64,000 nt of DNA from Candidatus Bathyarchaeia archaeon (GCA_038883775.1 JAVZLM010000004.1:113442-177441); one strand, 5' to 3'; counted from the stretch's first letter, positions 50,019-56,821 are shown. Made by a program: numbers and translations. Notes: generated by a model from the letters alone, not told the origin.

Positions 50019-51032
50019 TTGAGACAAAAAATGCCTAAAGTTTCCGTAATCATAATCAATTTTAAAGGGACACAACAGCTCGAAAAATGTCTGAATTCTC
50101 TTAAGCAAACTAATTATCCAAATTTTGAAGTAGTTGTTGTAGACTGCCTCACAGATAATTTGCTGATGTGGATGAAAATTTTCTTTCCAAAAGTTAAAGT
50201 TATCCATTACGATAATGATATTGGTCCTTCAGCATCCCATAACGTAGGAAAATATGTCGTAGACATTCACAGCAAGTATCTCGCCTTTCTCGATAATGAC
50301 GCTTATGTAACCGAAAACTGGCTTACAGAATTGTTAAAGGTTATGGAGAAAGACGAAAAAATTGGAATGGCTCAAGCAAAGCTAGTTTTATTGAAAAATC
50401 CTAGATTGTTAGACCATAGTGGAATGGCAATTGATGCCTTGGGCACATGGTATACAACTAGAGGGTTAGAAGCGGATAAATTCAAGGAAGTTTCTGAAAT
50501 TTTTGCATCATCATCAGCTGCATGCCTTGTTCGACGCGAAGTTTTCGATGAGGCTGGCGGCTTTGATTCGGATTATTTTATCTACGATGATGACACGGAC
50601 TTCTCTTTTAGACTAAGACTGTTAGGATACAAGATAGTTTATGTTCCATCAGCCGTCGTATTCCATGAGGGAGAAGCTGCTCGTTCATTCAACCCCCAGA
50701 AAATGTATCACGGAATTAAGAATAGAATGTGTACTATGCTTAAGAATTACGAATTGCAAAATGTTTGGTGGCGATTCTGTTTATGTATTACCTTGACATT
50801 TTTTGCAGGAATAGGTTTAGCTTTAGCGAAAAGAGTTAATGAAGCTAAGGCAATTTTTAAGGCTGCCGCTTATCCAATAGTAAATATTAGAAAAATATGG
50901 ATTAAACGAATTTTGATACAACATAAAAGACGTACTGATGATCAAGAGTTATTCAGTAAAGGTTTCTTAAAAAATGATATTCGCCCGACTTTACTTGATC
51001 TTATGTCAAAACTTCAATATTTTGGAAAATAA
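50019..51032 (+). CDS. GT2 glycosyltransferase
   Basis: VSVIIINF, LAFLDND, GGFDSDYFIYDDDTD and SAVVFH. Confidence 0.9.
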   Translation: MRQKMPKVSVIIINFKGTQQLEKCLNSLKQTNYPNFEVVVVDCLTDNLLMWMKIFFPKVKVIHYDNDIGPSASHNVGKYVVDIHSKYLAFLDNDAYVTENWLTELLKVMEKDEKIGMAQAKLVLLKNPRLLDHSGMAIDALGTWYTTRGLEADKFKEVSEIFASSSAACLVRREVFDEAGGFDSDYFIYDDDTDFSFRLRLLGYKIVYVPSAVVFHEGEAARSFNPQKMYHGIKNRMCTMLKNYELQNVWWRFCLCITLTFFAGIGLALAKRVNEAKAIFKAAAYPIVNIRKIWIKRILIQHKRRTDDQELFSKGFLKNDIRPTLLDLMSKLQYFGK

Positions 51033-51180
51033 ACGGCTCAAAATCTTTAATGATTATTTGCACCAAAATCATATGGCACTCTTATGAAGTTCCATAAACT
51101 ATAACTACTAATTGCTTTAAAAACAAAACCAAGATATTACCAACCAAACATTAGAATATTAGCAGCTAAGTGGGAAAAAC

Positions 51181-52161
51181 ATGCCCTCAGCATACTCTTC
51201 TCAAAGGATCTTTATAACAGGGGGAGCAGGCTTCATAGGAAGCCACATTGTTGATCGATTAGGCCAAAAGCGGAAAGAAGTAATTGTCTTCGACAATTTT
51301 AGCTCTGGAAAACTTGAAAACATTAAGCAGTGGCTTAAAAACTCAAACTTCACCCTTGTACGCGAAGATCTCTTAAAACCAGCAAGCATTCTAAAACCCT
51401 TATCTGAATGTGAAACTGTTTTCCATTTGGCTGCAAATCCAGAGGTTAGAGTTGGAACTGCTGATCCTAAAACGCATTATAAGCATAATGTAACTGCAAC
51501 TTTCAACCTTCTGGAAGCGGTTCGTAAGGTTGGCTGCGTTAAGAATTTTGTTTTTACATCTTCATCAACCGTTTATGGCGAAGCAGAGAAAATTCCAACA
51601 CCGGAGGATTATGCGCCCCTAAAACCAATCTCTATTTATGGCGCTTCTAAGCTTGCTTCTGAGGCTTTGATAACAGCATATGCTTATACTTATGGATTCA
51701 ATGCTATAATTTATAGACTAGCAAATATCATAGGCCCCAGGGCGCAGCACGGCGTCATACACGATTTCGTAAACAAACTTTCTAGGGATTCGAAAAAGTT
51801 GGAAATTCTCGGCGATGGGACTCAAAGAAAATCTTACTTATACATCGATGATTGCATAGATGCTATGCTTATGGGCGTTAGTCATTTGCATAATCGAGTG
51901 GAAATTTACAATGTGGGTTCAGAAGATCAAATAAATGTAAAAGAAATAGCTGACATGGTCTGCCAAGAGATGGGTTTGAGAAATGTTGAGTATATTTATA
52001 CTGGCGGTGTTGATGGTGGAAGGGGTTGGAAGGGAGACGTGAAACTCATGCTTTTAAAAATTGAAAAAATTAAAAGCCTCGGATGGAAACCCAAACTAAA
52101 TAGTCGTCAAGCAGTGCGAAAAACTGTAAAAGCAATTTTGCATGAAAGAAAATTAATTTAA
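51181..52161 (+). CDS. NAD-dependent nucleotide-sugar epimerase/dehydratase (GalE-like)
   Basis: TGGAGFIGSH, HLAA, SSSTVYG and YGASK. Confidence 0.93.
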   Translation: MPSAYSSQRIFITGGAGFIGSHIVDRLGQKRKEVIVFDNFSSGKLENIKQWLKNSNFTLVREDLLKPASILKPLSECETVFHLAANPEVRVGTADPKTHYKHNVTATFNLLEAVRKVGCVKNFVFTSSSTVYGEAEKIPTPEDYAPLKPISIYGASKLASEALITAYAYTYGFNAIIYRLANIIGPRAQHGVIHDFVNKLSRDSKKLEILGDGTQRKSYLYIDDCIDAMLMGVSHLHNRVEIYNVGSEDQINVKEIADMVCQEMGLRNVEYIYTGGVDGGRGWKGDVKLMLLKIEKIKSLGWKPKLNSRQAVRKTVKAILHERKLI

Positions 52162-53195
52162 TGAAGGCAAGGCCCTTGCATGGGAAAGATGCATATTACC
52201 CGAAAGTTTCAGTAATAGTTCCCGTCAAAAATGGAGCTGCATACATAAGAGAGCTTCTTGATTCTCTTATGCAAGTTGACTATGATAGGGATAAGTTGGA
52301 AATTATCGTAGTGGATGGAAATTCCACAGACAACACAAGAGAAATAGTTTCGCAGTATCCTGTCAAACTTTTGTTGGAAGAAAGACCGGGATTGAACGCG
52401 GCGAGAAATACTGGTGTAAGAAATAGTGATGGCGAAATTGTTGCCTTCACGGATGCTGATTGCATCATACCAAAAGACTGGTTAAGTAGGATAGTTGAAA
52501 ATTTTAGAGATTTTCAAGTGGGTTGTGTGGGAGGAAGCGTGGTGGGGTATTATGATAGTTTTTTGTCCCGTTATTCTGATGAAAGCTTCATTCCAGTCAT
52601 GAGAATTTTCAGAAAAAAGGAAGCGTTAAGCTCGGTTAAGCTCCCCCAAAAATATCCGGCTGGCTGCAACATGGCTGTGCGGCGAGATGCGCTAAACAAG
52701 GTTGGACTGTTTGATGAAGGCATTAAGTATGGTTTTGACGAGGACGAGCTTGTTGAGAGAATCTGCAGAAGAGGCTACAAAATGGTTTTAGACCCAGAGG
52801 TTTTAGTGAAGCATAAGCATAGGCCAGCGCTGAAGGAACTTTTAAAACAAAATTTCAGTTACGGGCGAGGTTTGGGTTTAATGTTAAGAAAGATGGGGAC
52901 AAAAAGCGCATTTCCGAAATGGATTCTTCTCTGCATAATCGGTTTTCTCATATGGAGCTCAGCAATATTAGCGTTGATAATACACGCCTTTTTGACCAGC
53001 TCATTTACATCTCTAATAATTCTATTAATGATGCTGCTGCTTCCGTTTTTTGGGCTTATGATTTTTTATGGATATCAAACCATTAAGAAAGGAGACAAAA
53101 AATACCAAAGAATAATCCTCTATCCACCAATAGACATTGCAAGAGCCTTAGCCTTCATTTTTGGAGGAATATACCAATTAATTAAAAAGTCATAG
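52161..53195 (+). CDS. GT2 glycosyltransferase with C-terminal TM segments
   Basis: VSVIVP, DGNSTD, ARNTG, FTDADC and GCNMA. Confidence 0.9.
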   Translation: MKARPLHGKDAYYPKVSVIVPVKNGAAYIRELLDSLMQVDYDRDKLEIIVVDGNSTDNTREIVSQYPVKLLLEERPGLNAARNTGVRNSDGEIVAFTDADCIIPKDWLSRIVENFRDFQVGCVGGSVVGYYDSFLSRYSDESFIPVMRIFRKKEALSSVKLPQKYPAGCNMAVRRDALNKVGLFDEGIKYGFDEDELVERICRRGYKMVLDPEVLVKHKHRPALKELLKQNFSYGRGLGLMLRKMGTKSAFPKWILLCIIGFLIWSSAILALIIHAFLTSSFTSLIILLMMLLLPFFGLMIFYGYQTIKKGDKKYQRIILYPPIDIARALAFIFGGIYQLIKKS

Positions 53196-53198
53196 GAT

Positions 53199-54110
53199 TT
53201 AACGGAACCAAGGCAATGTTCTTTCAACAATCTTAACTATTGGTAATCCTACGGCTATTGAAATTCCAGCTTGAAGGAAAAGGTCTTGAATGAAGGAGAT
53301 TACGGCAACGGGATAACCTTTAATGAATATGTTGACGAAAAAGTAGGTTGCAGCCATAAGAAAGCCGCCTATTATGCATGCAATCAATTGTAACACAAAA
53401 TTTTTCTTCTTTGTAAATCCTGGTATAACGCCTTCCAGCCCATGCGCAATGATTGAGACATACCAACGAGGATAAGCAAGGTAAAAATCTGCTACGACCG
53501 CGCCCACAACTCCAACGAGTCCTCCTACTTTTACCCCAAAAAGTAAAGCAACTAGGAACACAACAAAGTCTCCGAAATGTAGGAAACCTCCAGTTGGTGA
53601 TGGAACAGGGTATATTTGAAATGTAAGAACTATTAACACAGCGTACAAAGCCGAAAACAAAGCCACAACAGCAACTTCTACGCTTGTTAAAAGTGGTCCC
53701 TTCAACGCTGTTGATGGCATAGTGAAAGCAATTACTGCACTGGTTCCCATAAAAATCATGCTAATTATCATGCCAACCAGAAAGATGCTAGATTGAACCG
53801 ATCCAAACATGTTTGGGGTTATAAGCCCAAGTAATGCTGAGATAGCTCCTGCAAAACTTGAGATAGAGCTAGCCTTTGTATGCCCTTTGCGCATAAAATA
53901 AATACTTGTCAACTCGAGAATAGCGCTAAATAAGCCAAAGAAAATTAGAAGGCTGATGAATATTTTTTGGGGATCTGTTAGGCTTATTTTCTCAAATATC
54001 ACAAACCCCATATCAGATAAGATGGTGAAAACTTCTAGAATTGAAATTGCCGCTGCTAAAAATCCGCCTATGCCTGAAAATGCTTTTACTGCTACTTGCT
54101 TGTTCATCAA
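53199..54110 (-). CDS. ECF transporter S component (HmpT/PdxU/PanT-like) with extra N-terminal 4-TM domain
   Basis: VALFSAL, PTGGFLHFGD, GAVVAD and HGLEG in the C-terminal ~165 aa. Confidence 0.8.
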   Translation of the reverse strand: MMNKQVAVKAFSGIGGFLAAAISILEVFTILSDMGFVIFEKISLTDPQKIFISLLIFFGLFSAILELTSIYFMRKGHTKASSISSFAGAISALLGLITPNMFGSVQSSIFLVGMIISMIFMGTSAVIAFTMPSTALKGPLLTSVEVAVVALFSALYAVLIVLTFQIYPVPSPTGGFLHFGDFVVFLVALLFGVKVGGLVGVVGAVVADFYLAYPRWYVSIIAHGLEGVIPGFTKKKNFVLQLIACIIGGFLMAATYFFVNIFIKGYPVAVISFIQDLFLQAGISIAVGLPIVKIVERTLPWFR

Positions 54111-54131
54111 TAAACACCATTCAAGAGAAGA

Positions 54132-54155
54132 ATAGTATAGTTATAACTATACTAT
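54132..54155. promoter_or_regulatory. perfect 24-bp palindrome centred on TTATAA (candidate operator over the TATA box)
   Basis: ATAGTATAGTTATAACTATACTAT is its own reverse complement and lies 22-45 bp upstream of the ECF gene start. Confidence 0.75.
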
Positions 54156-54169
54156 ATTAGCTTTTCGAC

Positions 54170-55570
54170 TTAAAAGAGAAGTTTCAAATCATCCATCGCT
54201 TGTAAAGCTTTTCTGCCGCGCTCCGTTATTTTAAAGAATCTTTTCCCATTTTTTGTATAGCTTATTATCAGACCTTTCTCTGAAAGTTCGTTTAGGTGTT
54301 GGTATATCGCGGCGCGTGTCATTGTTTTTGCGAGTTTTTTCCATAAATCGTAACCATAAGTATCCTTTTCGTTTAGGATTCGTAGTATTTTCTCTTTTGT
54401 GCTTAGTTCTAAGCCTACTTTTGCTGTTTTTTGTTTTTTGGTTAAGGCGTGGAGCACATCTGTGGCTTTTAGTCCGCTTCCACTGATTAAGCAGACAACA
54501 CTATTGCTTTTATCAATTTTTTCAGTTTCAATAAGCTTTTTTAGGGCTGCGACTGTTGCTGAGCTTGCTGGTTCGGCGAACATTCCTTCGAGTTTGGCTA
54601 TTTGAAGTTCTGCTGAGAAGATTTCTTGGTCAGAAACTGTTAAGGCTAAGCCCTCTGATTCTTTTATGGCTTTTATGGCAAGCTCACCCTGGAGCGGTTG
54701 GGATACTAAAACGGCTAAGGCATGGGTGGACGGCTTAGAGATTTTCAGCATTTTTGTTTGTCCTTCTAAAAATGTTTTGACTATGGATGAGCTTCCTTCT
54801 GGTTGAACACCAACCATTTTTGGCAGCGAATCTGCTATTTTGAGCTGTTTAAGTTCTTTAAAGCCTTTCCAGATGGAATAGATCGTTCCCCCGCTTCCCA
54901 TGGGAACTATGAAATAGTCTGGAACACCCAACTGTTCATAAACTTCATAAGAAATTGTTTTCTGAGCCTCAATTGCCAAGGGGTTTAATTCGGCTGTGGC
55001 TTGATACCAACCCATTTCCTTTGCCAAGGTTTCAGCTTTGCGTATGGAGTCGTCTAAAATTTCTCCAAACTCTTCTATTGTTGCGTCATAAACCAGCATC
55101 TGCGCCAATTTTCCAATATCCACAAGTTTTGGCACGATCAAGTGGCAGTTTAGTCCAGCTTTAGCGCAATATGCAGCCAAAGAGGCGCCCAAATTTCCAT
55201 TTGATGCACAAACCAAAGTGTCATGGTTAAGTTCAATAGCATTTGATACATAAAGCGCGGCAGCTCTATCCCTATAAGAGTTTGTGGGGCTTCTGGTTTC
55301 ATCTTTCAAATACAATTTTTGCAAACCCAAACTTTTGGCAAGTCGGGAGGCTTCGTGAAGGGGTGTACCGCCTTCGCCTAAGCTGATTTGATGGCGTACT
55401 TGCGGAAGTAGAATCTTATATCTCCAAAAACTGAATCGCCCAGAAAACTTGATTTTGCGTTTTTTTGGCAACACCAAATCGTATTCAAGTGTTCCGCCAC
55501 AATTTCCACATCTGCCAAGTAATGGTGAATATGGGAATTTTGATTCGCATTTAACACATTTAAGAGTCAT
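54170..55570 (-). CDS. threonine-synthase-fold protein with Lys-to-Arg at the PLP site, fused to a C-terminal PadR-like winged helix
   Basis: N-terminal CxxC..CxxC, SLGEGGTPL, SPTNSYRDR, ASNGNLG, PMGSGG, EPASS and SGSGLK; C-terminal KILRIL..KDTYGYDL...RAAIYQHLNELSEKGLI...KITERGR. Confidence 0.88.
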   Translation of the reverse strand: MTLKCVKCESKFPYSPLLGRCGNCGGTLEYDLVLPKKRKIKFSGRFSFWRYKILLPQVRHQISLGEGGTPLHEASRLAKSLGLQKLYLKDETRSPTNSYRDRAAALYVSNAIELNHDTLVCASNGNLGASLAAYCAKAGLNCHLIVPKLVDIGKLAQMLVYDATIEEFGEILDDSIRKAETLAKEMGWYQATAELNPLAIEAQKTISYEVYEQLGVPDYFIVPMGSGGTIYSIWKGFKELKQLKIADSLPKMVGVQPEGSSSIVKTFLEGQTKMLKISKPSTHALAVLVSQPLQGELAIKAIKESEGLALTVSDQEIFSAELQIAKLEGMFAEPASSATVAALKKLIETEKIDKSNSVVCLISGSGLKATDVLHALTKKQKTAKVGLELSTKEKILRILNEKDTYGYDLWKKLAKTMTRAAIYQHLNELSEKGLIISYTKNGKRFFKITERGRKALQAMDDLKLLF

Positions 55571-55587
55571 GACAGAGTTTCAGCCTT

Positions 55588-56316
55588 TCATTTATTTTTG
55601 TCGAATAATTTTTGGAAGTTTTCGTAGAAAATTTTTCTCCTAGTTTTGTGCGAAATTTCTGCAGCCTCAACAATTGCTATTTGAGTTGGATAACGATAAT
55701 AGGGAATATCAGAGCCAAACAATATTCGATTCTCGTCTATGTCAACTGAAAGTTCAATGAAGTCTGGCAAGGTGCCTGAGGTTTCAACATAAACGTTTTC
55801 GCATTCTCTTAAGGCGTTAACAGACGCCTCTCTCAAATGTGCAAGAATTATTGGAAGCTTTGGATATTTCTTAGCAATTTTTAGGATAAGCCCGGGAGAG
55901 GAAAATCCGTCTCCGGAATGGAAAAGTATTGGAAGGTTTAGGGCGTTAGTTTTCTTGAAAAATTTGTTAAAGAAGGGATGGTCTGGTCTGAAACATTCCA
56001 CCATTGGATGCAACTTAATTCCACTTAAGCCCAGACCGTTTTTTATGCGCGTTAACTCTTTTATGGCATCTTCCCTTCTCGGGTCTACACGCCCAAACCC
56101 TATCAGCCTCTTTGGATATTTCTTAACTGATTTTGCCATGTAATCGTTCATTTTTGGATATTCATCGCCAACATTTGGGTTTGGAAAAACTATTGCCCGT
56201 TCAACATTATACTTGTCAAATAGACGAATAAGCTCATCCAAATAAATTGTGGGATTTATGTATGGTTGCCAAGGTCCAGACTTTCCCAAATGCACGTGAG
56301 CATCGCAAATTTTCAT
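55588..56316 (-). CDS. amidohydrolase (Amidohydro_2 family)
   Basis: DAHVH, GIKLHP, LFHSG, LAH and LFGSDIP. Confidence 0.9.
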   Translation of the reverse strand: MKICDAHVHLGKSGPWQPYINPTIYLDELIRLFDKYNVERAIVFPNPNVGDEYPKMNDYMAKSVKKYPKRLIGFGRVDPRREDAIKELTRIKNGLGLSGIKLHPMVECFRPDHPFFNKFFKKTNALNLPILFHSGDGFSSPGLILKIAKKYPKLPIILAHLREASVNALRECENVYVETSGTLPDFIELSVDIDENRILFGSDIPYYRYPTQIAIVEAAEISHKTRRKIFYENFQKLFDKNK

Positions 56317-56440
56317 GCAGTTCCCCTTCAGCCAATTTTTAACATCTACAATTATATTAGAATTGTTTAAATGCGTAAAATGGGAAAACCCTAAATGGAA
56401 GTATTATGCTCATAAATAGCAAAATGCGAGTTGAGCATTT

Positions 56441-56821
56441 ATGAGCGAAAAAGTTAAGGAAGACCCGGTTAAACTGCACAAGGATGCAAATACGCTTTAT
56501 GAAACTGGCAAATACAAAGAAGCCATGGAAAAATTTCTGCAAGCTTCAGAATTATACCGTAAAGCTAACAACTTCTTTGACGCCACATCCATGCTTTTTA
56601 AGGCTGGAGAATGCGCCTACATGCTCAAAGACCATGAAAAGGCTGTGGAAAATTTCCTCAAATCCGCAGAGCTATCCTTCAACAAAGGCTTTGACAGGTT
56701 CGGGGTAAGCGCCTTAGAATATGCCAGAGACTGCTACATCGCATTAAAAGATAAGGAAAAGGTTGACGAACTGGAGAAGAAAATAAAGGAAGTTAAGGAA
56801 AAACTGGAAGCCTCATTCTAA
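56441..56821 (+). CDS. TPR/SNAP-like helical repeat protein
   Basis: Repeats such as GKYKEAMEKFLQASELY and KAGECAY...EKAVENFLKSAEL. Confidence 0.7.
   Translation: MSEKVKEDPVKLHKDANTLYETGKYKEAMEKFLQASELYRKANNFFDATSMLFKAGECAYMLKDHEKAVENFLKSAELSFNKGFDRFGVSALEYARDCYIALKDKEKVDELEKKIKEVKEKLEASF

Follow-up and report, generated by a model that had tools for sequence, protein, structure and literature searches.

The stretch of DNA analysed here (the window) comprises 64,000 nucleotides from a Candidatus Bathyarchaeia archaeon (GCA_038883775.1 JAVZLM010000004.1:113442-177441) and carries a gene for a 466-residue protein in which a threonine synthase (ThrC) fold, one of the fold-type II enzymes that use pyridoxal 5'-phosphate (PLP), is followed by a winged helix-turn-helix (wHTH) domain. 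The protein is very likely a transcription factor acting at the promoter of the neighbouring gene, which encodes the S component of an energy-coupling factor transporter (ECF-S). The full proposal, in which the signal is a form of vitamin B6, is given a probability of roughly 0.6. The case is built on the domain architecture, the loss of the Schiff-base lysine, the conserved cofactor motifs, an operator sequence that is conserved and keeps its place, the synteny and the link of a sister clade to pdxST, all of which were observed computationally.

The PadR-type winged helix (PF03551) lies at residues 395-457 (E = 5.4e-10; 39.6 bits against a Pfam cut-off of 27), confirming the C-terminal PadR-like domain of ~75 residues that had been read from the sequence in an earlier note on this DNA. 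The AlphaFold model of the regulator has a mean predicted local distance difference test (pLDDT) score of 91.5 and falls below 50 only at residues 379-388, a disordered linker that joins the zinc-ribbon-like N terminus and the threonine-synthase core to the wHTH domain (residues 391-465). The modelled wHTH consists of helices at residues 391-401, 406-412 and 419-431, strands at 435-440 and 443-448 and a last helix at 450-465, that is, a three-helix bundle with a beta-hairpin wing and a further helix at the C terminus, and the 10-residue blocks over residues 391-460 have mean pLDDT values of 83-94. The best Foldseek matches of the model in the PDB are threonine synthases (target-normalised TM of 0.85-0.88), and the sequence identity to solved threonine synthases is 34-37%. 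Alignment of 32 diverse fusions showed that conservation reaches 90% or more at the zinc-ribbon cysteines C5, C8 and C24, that it does so, or is complete, at Y423, Q424 and H425 of the third wHTH helix, and that N94, P95, T96, S98, D101, R102, G125, N126, G225, G227, E328, E333, T363, G366, L367 and K368 are invariant or nearly so. The cofactor-site motifs NPT.S..DR, GN, the glycine loop, FAEPAS and TGSGLK are thus kept across the fusions. The query has the GN of ASNGN, the glycine loop PMGSGG, FAEPAS and SGSGLK, and all the motifs listed in the earlier note (GEGGTPL, ASNGN, PMGSGG, EPAS and SGSGLK) were found in its translation. The regulator presumably acts as a dimer on the palindrome described below; a homodimer prediction with two copies of residues 386-466 scored 0.30 where the mark was 0.42 and informs neither way.

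Alignment to solved threonine synthases placed Arg100 opposite the lysine that forms the Schiff base with PLP, with SPTNSYRDR standing for NPTGSFKDR and the codon AGG for the lysine codon, as the earlier note had read them. The arginine is present in 120/120 of the closest homologues (72-100% identity) and in 14/14 order-level relatives, and it is encoded by AGG (13), AGA (11), CGA (2), CGC (2) and CGT (2) among 30 related loci. The uniform presence of arginine in the closest homologues, together with its five different codons, indicates that the residue is under selection. The same two observations rule out a sequencing error or a private mutation at the lysine codon, a worry that the earlier note had raised.

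The relation between the fusion and the lysine was surveyed in 150 representatives sampled from 1.84 billion clusters. Proteins with a C-terminal extension of roughly 75 residues were counted as fused; six longer lysine-bearing proteins and two rows gapped at the site were set aside. The lysine is absent in 71/73 fused representatives, which have L (18), R (15), I (15), V (6), T (5), M (4), F (3) or, once each, S, Y, N, A and H at the site, and it is present in 66/69 unfused relatives, the three others including two fragmentary sequences (247 and 227 residues). Loss of the lysine therefore tracks the fusion (71/73 fused against 3/69 unfused proteins without it), which answers a question of the earlier note, whether the loss is a general property of ThrC-wHTH fusions. 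A FastTree phylogeny of the enzyme core alone (wHTH columns excluded; 149 rows of at least 340 residues) resolved two fusion clades. Clade A (support 96) holds 50 rows, all hydrophobic at the site, and clade B (support 99), to which the query belongs, holds 25 rows in which the residue is R, K, S, Y, H, F or T. Both clades stand apart from the 73 unfused lysine enzymes.

The substrate side of the pocket also differs from that of the enzymes. The NSxNPxR stretch of ThrC, which is reported from Thermus structures to bind the phosphate of O-phosphohomoserine through its Asn, Ser and Arg, reads NSVNPYR in 2ZSJ and stands opposite AELNPLA in the query. At the presumed phosphate-binding Arg position, the six commonest residues in 73 fusions are F, L, S, T, Y and I, with Arg not among them, and Arg is the commonest residue in the unfused enzymes (19/66). 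A pocket that keeps the cofactor contacts and lacks both the catalytic lysine and the substrate contacts has the expected look of a cofactor sensor. The earlier note had suggested a search for a separate canonical thrC, and other lysine-bearing ThrC-family genes in the assembly do pass curated cut-offs (NF006050, 503 against 303 bits; NF005035, 446 against 301; TIGR00260, 213 against 167). Threonine synthesis thus does not depend on the regulator protein. In the order-level loci L051, L053, L060, L085 and L089-L091, a canonical lysine-bearing ThrC gene (ASTGN and PVGNAG motifs, ~420 residues, without the wHTH) lies upstream of the arginine-type regulator on the opposite strand, adjacent to it or one to two open reading frames (ORFs) away. 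This arrangement may be a trace of an origin by thrC duplication.

The predicted operator is a perfect palindrome situated between the stop codon of the regulator gene and the start of the ECF-S gene, as the earlier note had seen beside the ORF; it is 24 bp long. A search with its 22-nt core at up to 3 mismatches gave one match in the window and 0 in 100 shuffles, and the whole 1.69-Mb assembly has only two sites at up to 5 mismatches, each between a regulator gene and an ECF-S gene. Twenty-nine related loci were taken from a 301-genome sample of the class, and each 4.4-kb locus was searched for the 22-mer at up to 5 mismatches. Each has one site or two adjacent sites and no others. The match lies upstream of the ECF-S gene in 27/27 loci holding one, at most 36 nt from the predicted start in 24 of them. 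Four of these loci have 646-1258 nt between the regulator gene and the ECF-S gene, and there too the site remains beside the ECF-S gene. This constancy indicates that the palindrome is most probably an operator and not a terminator. The changes in the palindrome are not compensatory, that of L016 being confined to one arm, and a search of 52900-56700 against Rfam (E up to 1) gave no family match. On these grounds the reading of the site as a hairpin or terminator belonging to the regulator gene was rejected. A conserved sequence that stays with the ECF-S promoter favours the interpretation of the earlier note. A third tandem right half-site, GCAACTATACTA, follows the palindrome by ~5 nt in L021, L022, L025, L026 and L030, which suggests, from the sequence arrangement, that more than one dimer would be bound in some lineages.

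The palindrome ends ~21 nt before the ECF-S start codon, with GGTG between, and is overlapped by 3 nt by a TATA-like box. The element CGAAAAG-CTAATATA looks like the TFB-recognition element (BRE) and TATA box of the ECF-S gene, and boxes of the TTTAATA/AAAATA type occur at the same place in the related loci. Archaeal operators that overlap a TATA-like box near the start usually mediate repression, and repression is favoured here because the bound protein would occlude the core promoter. In the Thermococcus metagenome-assembled genomes L107 and L112, a palindrome CCTAAACT-A-AGTTTAGG lies just downstream of the regulator gene and precedes the gene of a 107-residue predicted membrane protein and then, as read by eye, a ribose-5-phosphate-isomerase-like gene. 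The regulon of Thermococcales may differ, since L107 and L112 have no ECF-S gene.

The predicted target matches the S-component family PF07155 with 76.5 bits against a cut-off of 26.7, and an EcfT gene (CbiQ family) elsewhere in the genome (C1:111718-112326) agrees with this assignment. The only PDB sequence match of the S component of the window is chain S of 4HZU, HmpT/PdxU2 (E = 3.6e-9), which is also the only match of a second copy on contig C14 (E = 9.5e-5). In the alignment of the C14 copy to HmpT, Asp replaces Glu41, Trp76 is kept, Arg replaces His84 and Met replaces Gln87; in the window copy, reading of the translation by eye gave Asp (HFGD), His (IAHG, opposite His84) and Glu at pocket positions. 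The pocket residues named in PMC4860826 are thus only partly conserved. The window copy has ~140 extra hydrophobic membrane residues (53691-54110, minus strand) N-terminal to the S-component fold, which begins near residue 144. This extension is highly similar only to that of the L016 orthologue (E = 4e-132), the other orthologues being 165-260 residues long. The ECF-S gene adjoins the regulator gene in 27/29 of the related Bathyarchaeia loci; of the remaining pair, one stops at the end of its contig and one has no ECF-S. The same synteny occurs in Desulfurococcales, Nitrososphaerota, Thorarchaeota and other Asgard loci. Among clade-A loci across the phylum, 20/28 have a divergent ECF-S gene, one has pdxST and seven have neither within 1.5 kb.

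In the window, the Amidohydro_2, regulator and ECF-S genes are co-oriented on the minus strand (Table 1), in the order described by the earlier note. Of the two neighbours whose conservation it had proposed to check, ECF-S is conserved and the amidohydrolase recurs less often. The gap from the end of the Amidohydro_2 gene to the regulator gene is 17 nt, and the two are probably co-transcribed.

Table 1. Features of the regulator locus, numbered from the first nucleotide of the window.
Feature	Position	Strand	Basis
Amidohydro_2 gene (metal-dependent TIM-barrel hydrolase)	55588..56316	-	Pfam PF04909, E 2.4e-27
ThrC-wHTH regulator gene, 466 aa	54170..55570	-	ORF with Pfam PALP and PadR domains
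Zinc-ribbon-like CxxC...CxxC, residues 5-27	55490..55558	-	C5, C8, C24 conserved; short strands in model
Fold-type II PLP-enzyme (ThrC-like) domain, residues 62-364	54479..55387	-	Pfam PALP, E 5e-76
Codon AGG, Arg100 at PLP Schiff-base lysine site	55271..55273	-	Alignments to 2ZSJ and 2D1F
PadR-type wHTH and C-terminal helix, residues 391-466	54173..54400	-	Pfam PF03551, AlphaFold model
Perfect 24-bp palindrome ATAGTATAGTTATAACTATACTAT, predicted operator of ECF-S promoter	54132..54155	none	Sequence, conservation
BRE-like purine-rich CGAAAAG and TATA-like box CTAATATA of ECF-S gene	54153..54167	-	Inferred by reading the sequence
ECF S component, HmpT/PdxU2 type, 303 aa; predicted target gene	53199..54110	-	PF07155 at residues 144-296, E 3e-21
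PurM-superfamily (AIRS-like) gene remnant, 157 aa	48228..48701	-	61% identity over 145 aa to intact C14 copy

Besides the PLP fold of the sensor with its cofactor contacts intact, four lines of evidence point to B6 as the signal, which adds to what the earlier note had proposed from the sequence: the sister-clade adjacency to pdxST, the match of the S component to HmpT/PdxU2, the absence of detectable PdxS and a separate thiamine-precursor salvage operon headed by a thiamine pyrophosphate (TPP) riboswitch. In family f21 of the Bathyarchaeia, clade-A fusions with Leu or Met at the Schiff-base site are divergent from pdxS-pdxT in 5/5 loci with enough flank. The intergenic regions of pdxS-linked and ECF-S-linked clade-A fusions (L061-L065 on the pdxS side; L108, L110, L105 and L168-L191 on the ECF-S side) share a composite motif, ATATATAAG-N7-CCTATATATAGG. 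Its 12-mer is matched at up to 2 mismatches in 11/21 regions, six of the 21 being too short as a result of ORF over-calling. The second element, CCTATATATAGG, is itself a palindrome. For HmpT/PdxU2, PMC4860826 gives pyridoxamine as the substrate, from mass spectrometry and simulation. PdxS was not found in this genome, which is 91% complete, and occurs in only 33/301 genomes of the class and 3/48 of the family. On contig 8, a thiamine-precursor salvage operon (G000:C8:82653-85993) begins with a TPP riboswitch (RF00059; 78 bits, cut-off 54) and encodes an NCS1 permease (PF02133), a fused ThiD/ThiN protein and ThiW. The thiamine pyrimidine is thus already served by its own riboswitch-headed operon, which weighs for B6. 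In family f2, ThiC is present in 14/16 genomes with the regulator; among the 101 genomes with a close regulator orthologue, ThiC is found in 35 and PdxS in 7, counts that are descriptive only because the genomes are related.

Two further genes accompany the module. A PurM-like gene follows ECF-S in 16/29 related loci despite the short flanks, recurs more often with the module than Amidohydro_2 does, and is also found beside the clade-A fusions L129, L184 and L185. Its scores against HypE (123 bits) and ThiL (96.5 bits) are both below the cut-offs. ThiL was rejected as its identity, since the ThiL cut-off is 184 and a true ThiL scores 270 bits elsewhere in the genome. Amidohydro_2 genes occur with the module in the window, on C14, in L014, L016 and L081, and in the clade-A loci L178 and L181. 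The Amidohydro_2 protein has no NCBIfam family match, and ESM Atlas look-ups of the AIRS-like protein and the amidohydrolase returned generic family names only. In the PurM-like remnant of the window, the first ~23 residues are joined directly to the C-terminal domain, the N-terminal AIRS domain being deleted. Glycosyltransferase and NAD-epimerase genes (~50019-53195, plus strand) lie between this remnant and the ECF-S gene, which suggests that an insertion broke an ancestral regulator / ECF-S / AIRS order in the window.

The 13.9-kb contig C14 (L161:1-13913) carries an intact array of regulator, palindrome, ECF-S, Amidohydro_2 and AIRS-like gene. Its genes are related to those of the window at identities of 73% (ThiF-like), 76% (ATP-dependent DNA ligase), 79% (TPR-like), 66% (radical-SAM), 70% (epimerase) and 64% (regulator). 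Two paralogous regulators in one genome are disfavoured, as C14 repeats the housekeeping neighbours of the window at 66-79% identity, and among the matches listed no other genome has two strong full-length regulator matches. The duplicated neighbours indicate that C14 probably comes from a co-binned relative (bin contamination of 5.1%). Two nearly identical ThrC-family genes at C2:164272-165537 and C18:6722-7975 (tree branch lengths of 0.015 and 0.075) likewise point to redundancy in the bin or to a mixture of strains.

In the proposed mechanism, the ThrC-fold domain, with a PLP-type pocket and without the covalent lysine, would bind a B6 form (PLP, or pyridoxamine or pyridoxine 5'-phosphate, PMP or PNP) reversibly and so report the cellular B6 level. 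The C-terminal PadR-type wHTH, presumably as a dimer, would bind the 22-24-bp palindrome, where the TATA-like box of the ECF-S gene and its expected transcription start would both be covered. With ligand bound, access of TBP, TFB and RNA polymerase would be blocked and the gene of the putative B6 importer would be off; when B6 is scarce, the palindrome would be freed and uptake induced. The organism is apparently unable to make PLP de novo and would rely on uptake through ECF-S.

The observations gathered in this paragraph and the next either count against a B6-responsive repressor or bear on its alternatives. The lysine is kept in the orthologues of the Bathyarchaeia family f19 (6/6 loci), in the Asgard loci L100-L103 and in 2/65 Thermococcales homologues, of which 62/65 have arginine, and such members could, by their sequences, still be enzymes. 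The objection foreseen in the earlier note, that orthologues carry lysine, therefore applies to distant orthologues and not to those of the same order, and its description of the protein as catalytically dead suits the protein of the window and its close homologues and not the whole clade. The orthologues that keep the lysine have the wHTH, the PTNS/SNGN signature and a neighbouring ECF-S gene in common with the arginine forms, among which the K forms are nested on the core tree, and those of f19 keep the palindrome core TATAGTT-N2-3-AACTATA. Because the wHTH and the ECF-S synteny are shared in this way, the regulatory role is probably older than, or independent of, the K-to-R change. The regulator also exceeds the TIGR00260 thrC cut-off (205.4 against 167.1 bits). 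It has the fold of an active ThrC and this score, and it lacks the Schiff-base lysine, the presumed phosphate-binding residues and the status of sole candidate. A working threonine synthase or other PLP enzyme, in which the wHTH has another role and the palindrome is a terminator or unrelated hairpin, could claim the fold, the TIGR00260 score, the name threonine synthase in NF004170 and public records and the few members that keep the lysine. It is highly improbable in view of the loss of the lysine here, in every close homologue and in nearly all diverse fusions, of the other ThrC genes in the assembly, and of a palindrome that stays at the ECF-S start up to 1258 nt from the regulator stop with its sequence, and not just its pairing, conserved. 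MocR-type regulators include activators and a mode in which PLP acts together with an amine. By analogy, the fusion could be a ligand-dependent activator, or PLP could be a co-ligand with an amino compound as the signal through an external aldimine, as for gamma-aminobutyric acid (GABA) in GabR. PLP bound without the lysine would have a free aldehyde able to capture an amine, the alternation of K and R in the clade indicates that the site tolerates both, and PMC5320631 describes PLP, GABA and taurine regulons for MocR. Against this stand the position of the operator, across the TATA-like box with its end ~20 nt short of the start codon, and the lack of any conserved amino-compound pathway near the locus other than two unexplained enzymes, which leaves an activator or co-ligand mode improbable.

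The same regulator and operator logic could serve an effector and cargo other than B6, namely hydroxymethylpyrimidine (HMP) or its phosphate (HMP-P), O-phosphohomoserine or phosphothreonine, or an amide precursor processed by the Amidohydro_2 and PurM-like enzymes. This alternative appears unlikely, though by no means negligible. HMP and HMP-P are structurally like pyridoxine or PNP, ThiC was not found in this genome, and HmpT/PdxU2 was originally assigned to HMP, the thiamine pyrimidine, according to PMC4860826; HMP or HMP-P therefore keeps a share of the probability. The ancestral ThrC pocket binds a phospho-amino acid, and the PurM-like and Amidohydro_2 genes, which recur in both clades, are conserved partners without a place in known B6 salvage. 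The adjacency to pdxST was seen in one family of the Bathyarchaeia and was absent at five f12 PdxS loci and nine others examined, and the phyletic contrast with PdxS (7/101 against 26/200) was too weak and was set aside as evidence. The clade-A composite motif may represent operators, back-to-back TATA boxes or both, and its likeness to TATA boxes lessens its weight for B6. DNA binding, repression over activation, the ligand, the transported substrate and the roles of the partner enzymes are predicted from the comparisons, and this too lowers the probability of the full proposal. Against a ligand other than B6, the genome has the TPP-riboswitch operon and a true ThiL elsewhere, ThiC is present in a third of the regulator genomes (35/101) and in most of those of family f2, and the sister-clade regulators stand beside pdxST and not beside thiamine or threonine genes. 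In addition, the fusions keep the cofactor-site motifs, whereas at the position of the arginine that reportedly binds the substrate phosphate in ThrC their commonest residues do not include Arg. B6 thus remains the preferred signal of the regulator.

Comparison with known systems supports, at the level of sequence, the proposal of the earlier note that the fusion is a fold-type II analogue of MocR controlling an uptake module. As described in PMC5320631, MocR/PdxR regulators use a PLP-enzyme fold as the sensor, control pdxST and pdxU, often divergently, and bind promoter repeats; according to the same paper, MocR does not occur in Archaea. The archaeal fusion resembles MocR/PdxR as a one-component regulator with a whole PLP-enzyme fold as its predicted sensor and with B6 genes nearby, here as a genomic association. 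However, MocR/PdxR joins a GntR wHTH at its N terminus to a domain of fold-type I, whereas the fusion is archaeal and has a fold-type II domain, a C-terminal PadR-type wHTH and a mostly lost lysine. Pfam reported no GntR or aminotransferase family for the regulator. In the absence of a sequence relationship, the fusion is an analogue of MocR and not a member. With threonine synthase it shares the fold and the N-terminal zinc ribbon of the archaeal ThrC group, but it has no catalytic lysine, has an added wHTH and has a vitamin-type transporter gene as neighbour instead of threonine genes. Like PadR regulators, it has a winged helix with a C-terminal helix and a palindrome, bound by prediction, next to its predicted target gene. 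Classical PadR proteins have ~110-180 residues and no enzyme-like sensor domain, whereas the wHTH here is appended to a 380-residue enzyme fold. The archaeal regulators ThiR (thiamine, with a ThiN-like sensor) and RbkR (riboflavin kinase with a wHTH) act at palindromes overlapping the promoters of synthesis and transporter genes. They too fuse a wHTH to an enzyme-derived domain from the metabolism of the same cofactor, but the cofactor, the sensor fold and the family and position of the wHTH are different. The S component resembles HmpT/PdxU2 in its PDB match and in the acidic Asp opposite Glu41, and differs in its low identity, in the N-terminal extension of the window copy and in Gln87 and other pocket residues.

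The earlier note had called the fusion a candidate new regulator; as a sequence family it is already catalogued, in NCBIfam NF004170, and is not rare. NF004170 (PRK05638) is a 'threonine synthase' equivalog model that spans the wHTH and matches the full length of the regulator with 395.4 bits, below its cut-off of 421. The model is centred on arginine-type Thermococcales fusions without the lysine, which score 804 and 800 bits (L107:5998-7335 and P0142). Its name is probably wrong and the misannotation systematic. Public records from Pyrococcus abyssi, P. horikoshii, Thermococcus onnurineus and others give either 'threonine synthase' or 'pyridoxal-phosphate dependent enzyme' as the name. In the open literature, a search that did not cover subscription journals and supplements found neither a ThrC-wHTH regulator nor a B6 regulator of archaea described.

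A broader view would make the fusions a pan-archaeal family of fold-type II PLP sensors in Thermoproteota (including Bathyarchaeia), Asgard archaea and Thermococcales, the archaeal counterpart of PdxR, governing pdxST and a new B6 salvage route with a PdxU2-like ECF-S, a PurM-like vitamer-activating enzyme or kinase and Amidohydro_2, and with the alternation of lysine, arginine and hydrophobic residues tuning covalent against reversible cofactor binding. We regard this view as speculative and rather doubtful. The fusion itself, as predicted from its sequence relatives, is an enzyme-fold one-component vitamin regulator that is independent of MocR and widespread in archaea. Since cultured Pyrococcus and Thermococcus species carry members without the lysine, the hypothesis is directly testable.

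We know of no B6-responsive regulator in Archaea. If the proposal is true, the family would fill the archaeal gap left by the absence of MocR/PdxR and would represent a second, independent recruitment of a whole PLP-enzyme fold as a transcriptional sensor. The naming of the fusions as threonine synthase by NF004170 and many public records would inflate threonine-pathway calls in archaeal reconstructions, and the PurM-like and Amidohydro_2 enzymes are candidates for new salvage chemistry. Because PdxS was found in so few of the Bathyarchaeia genomes, the regulated importer may supply an essential cofactor to a very abundant sediment lineage.

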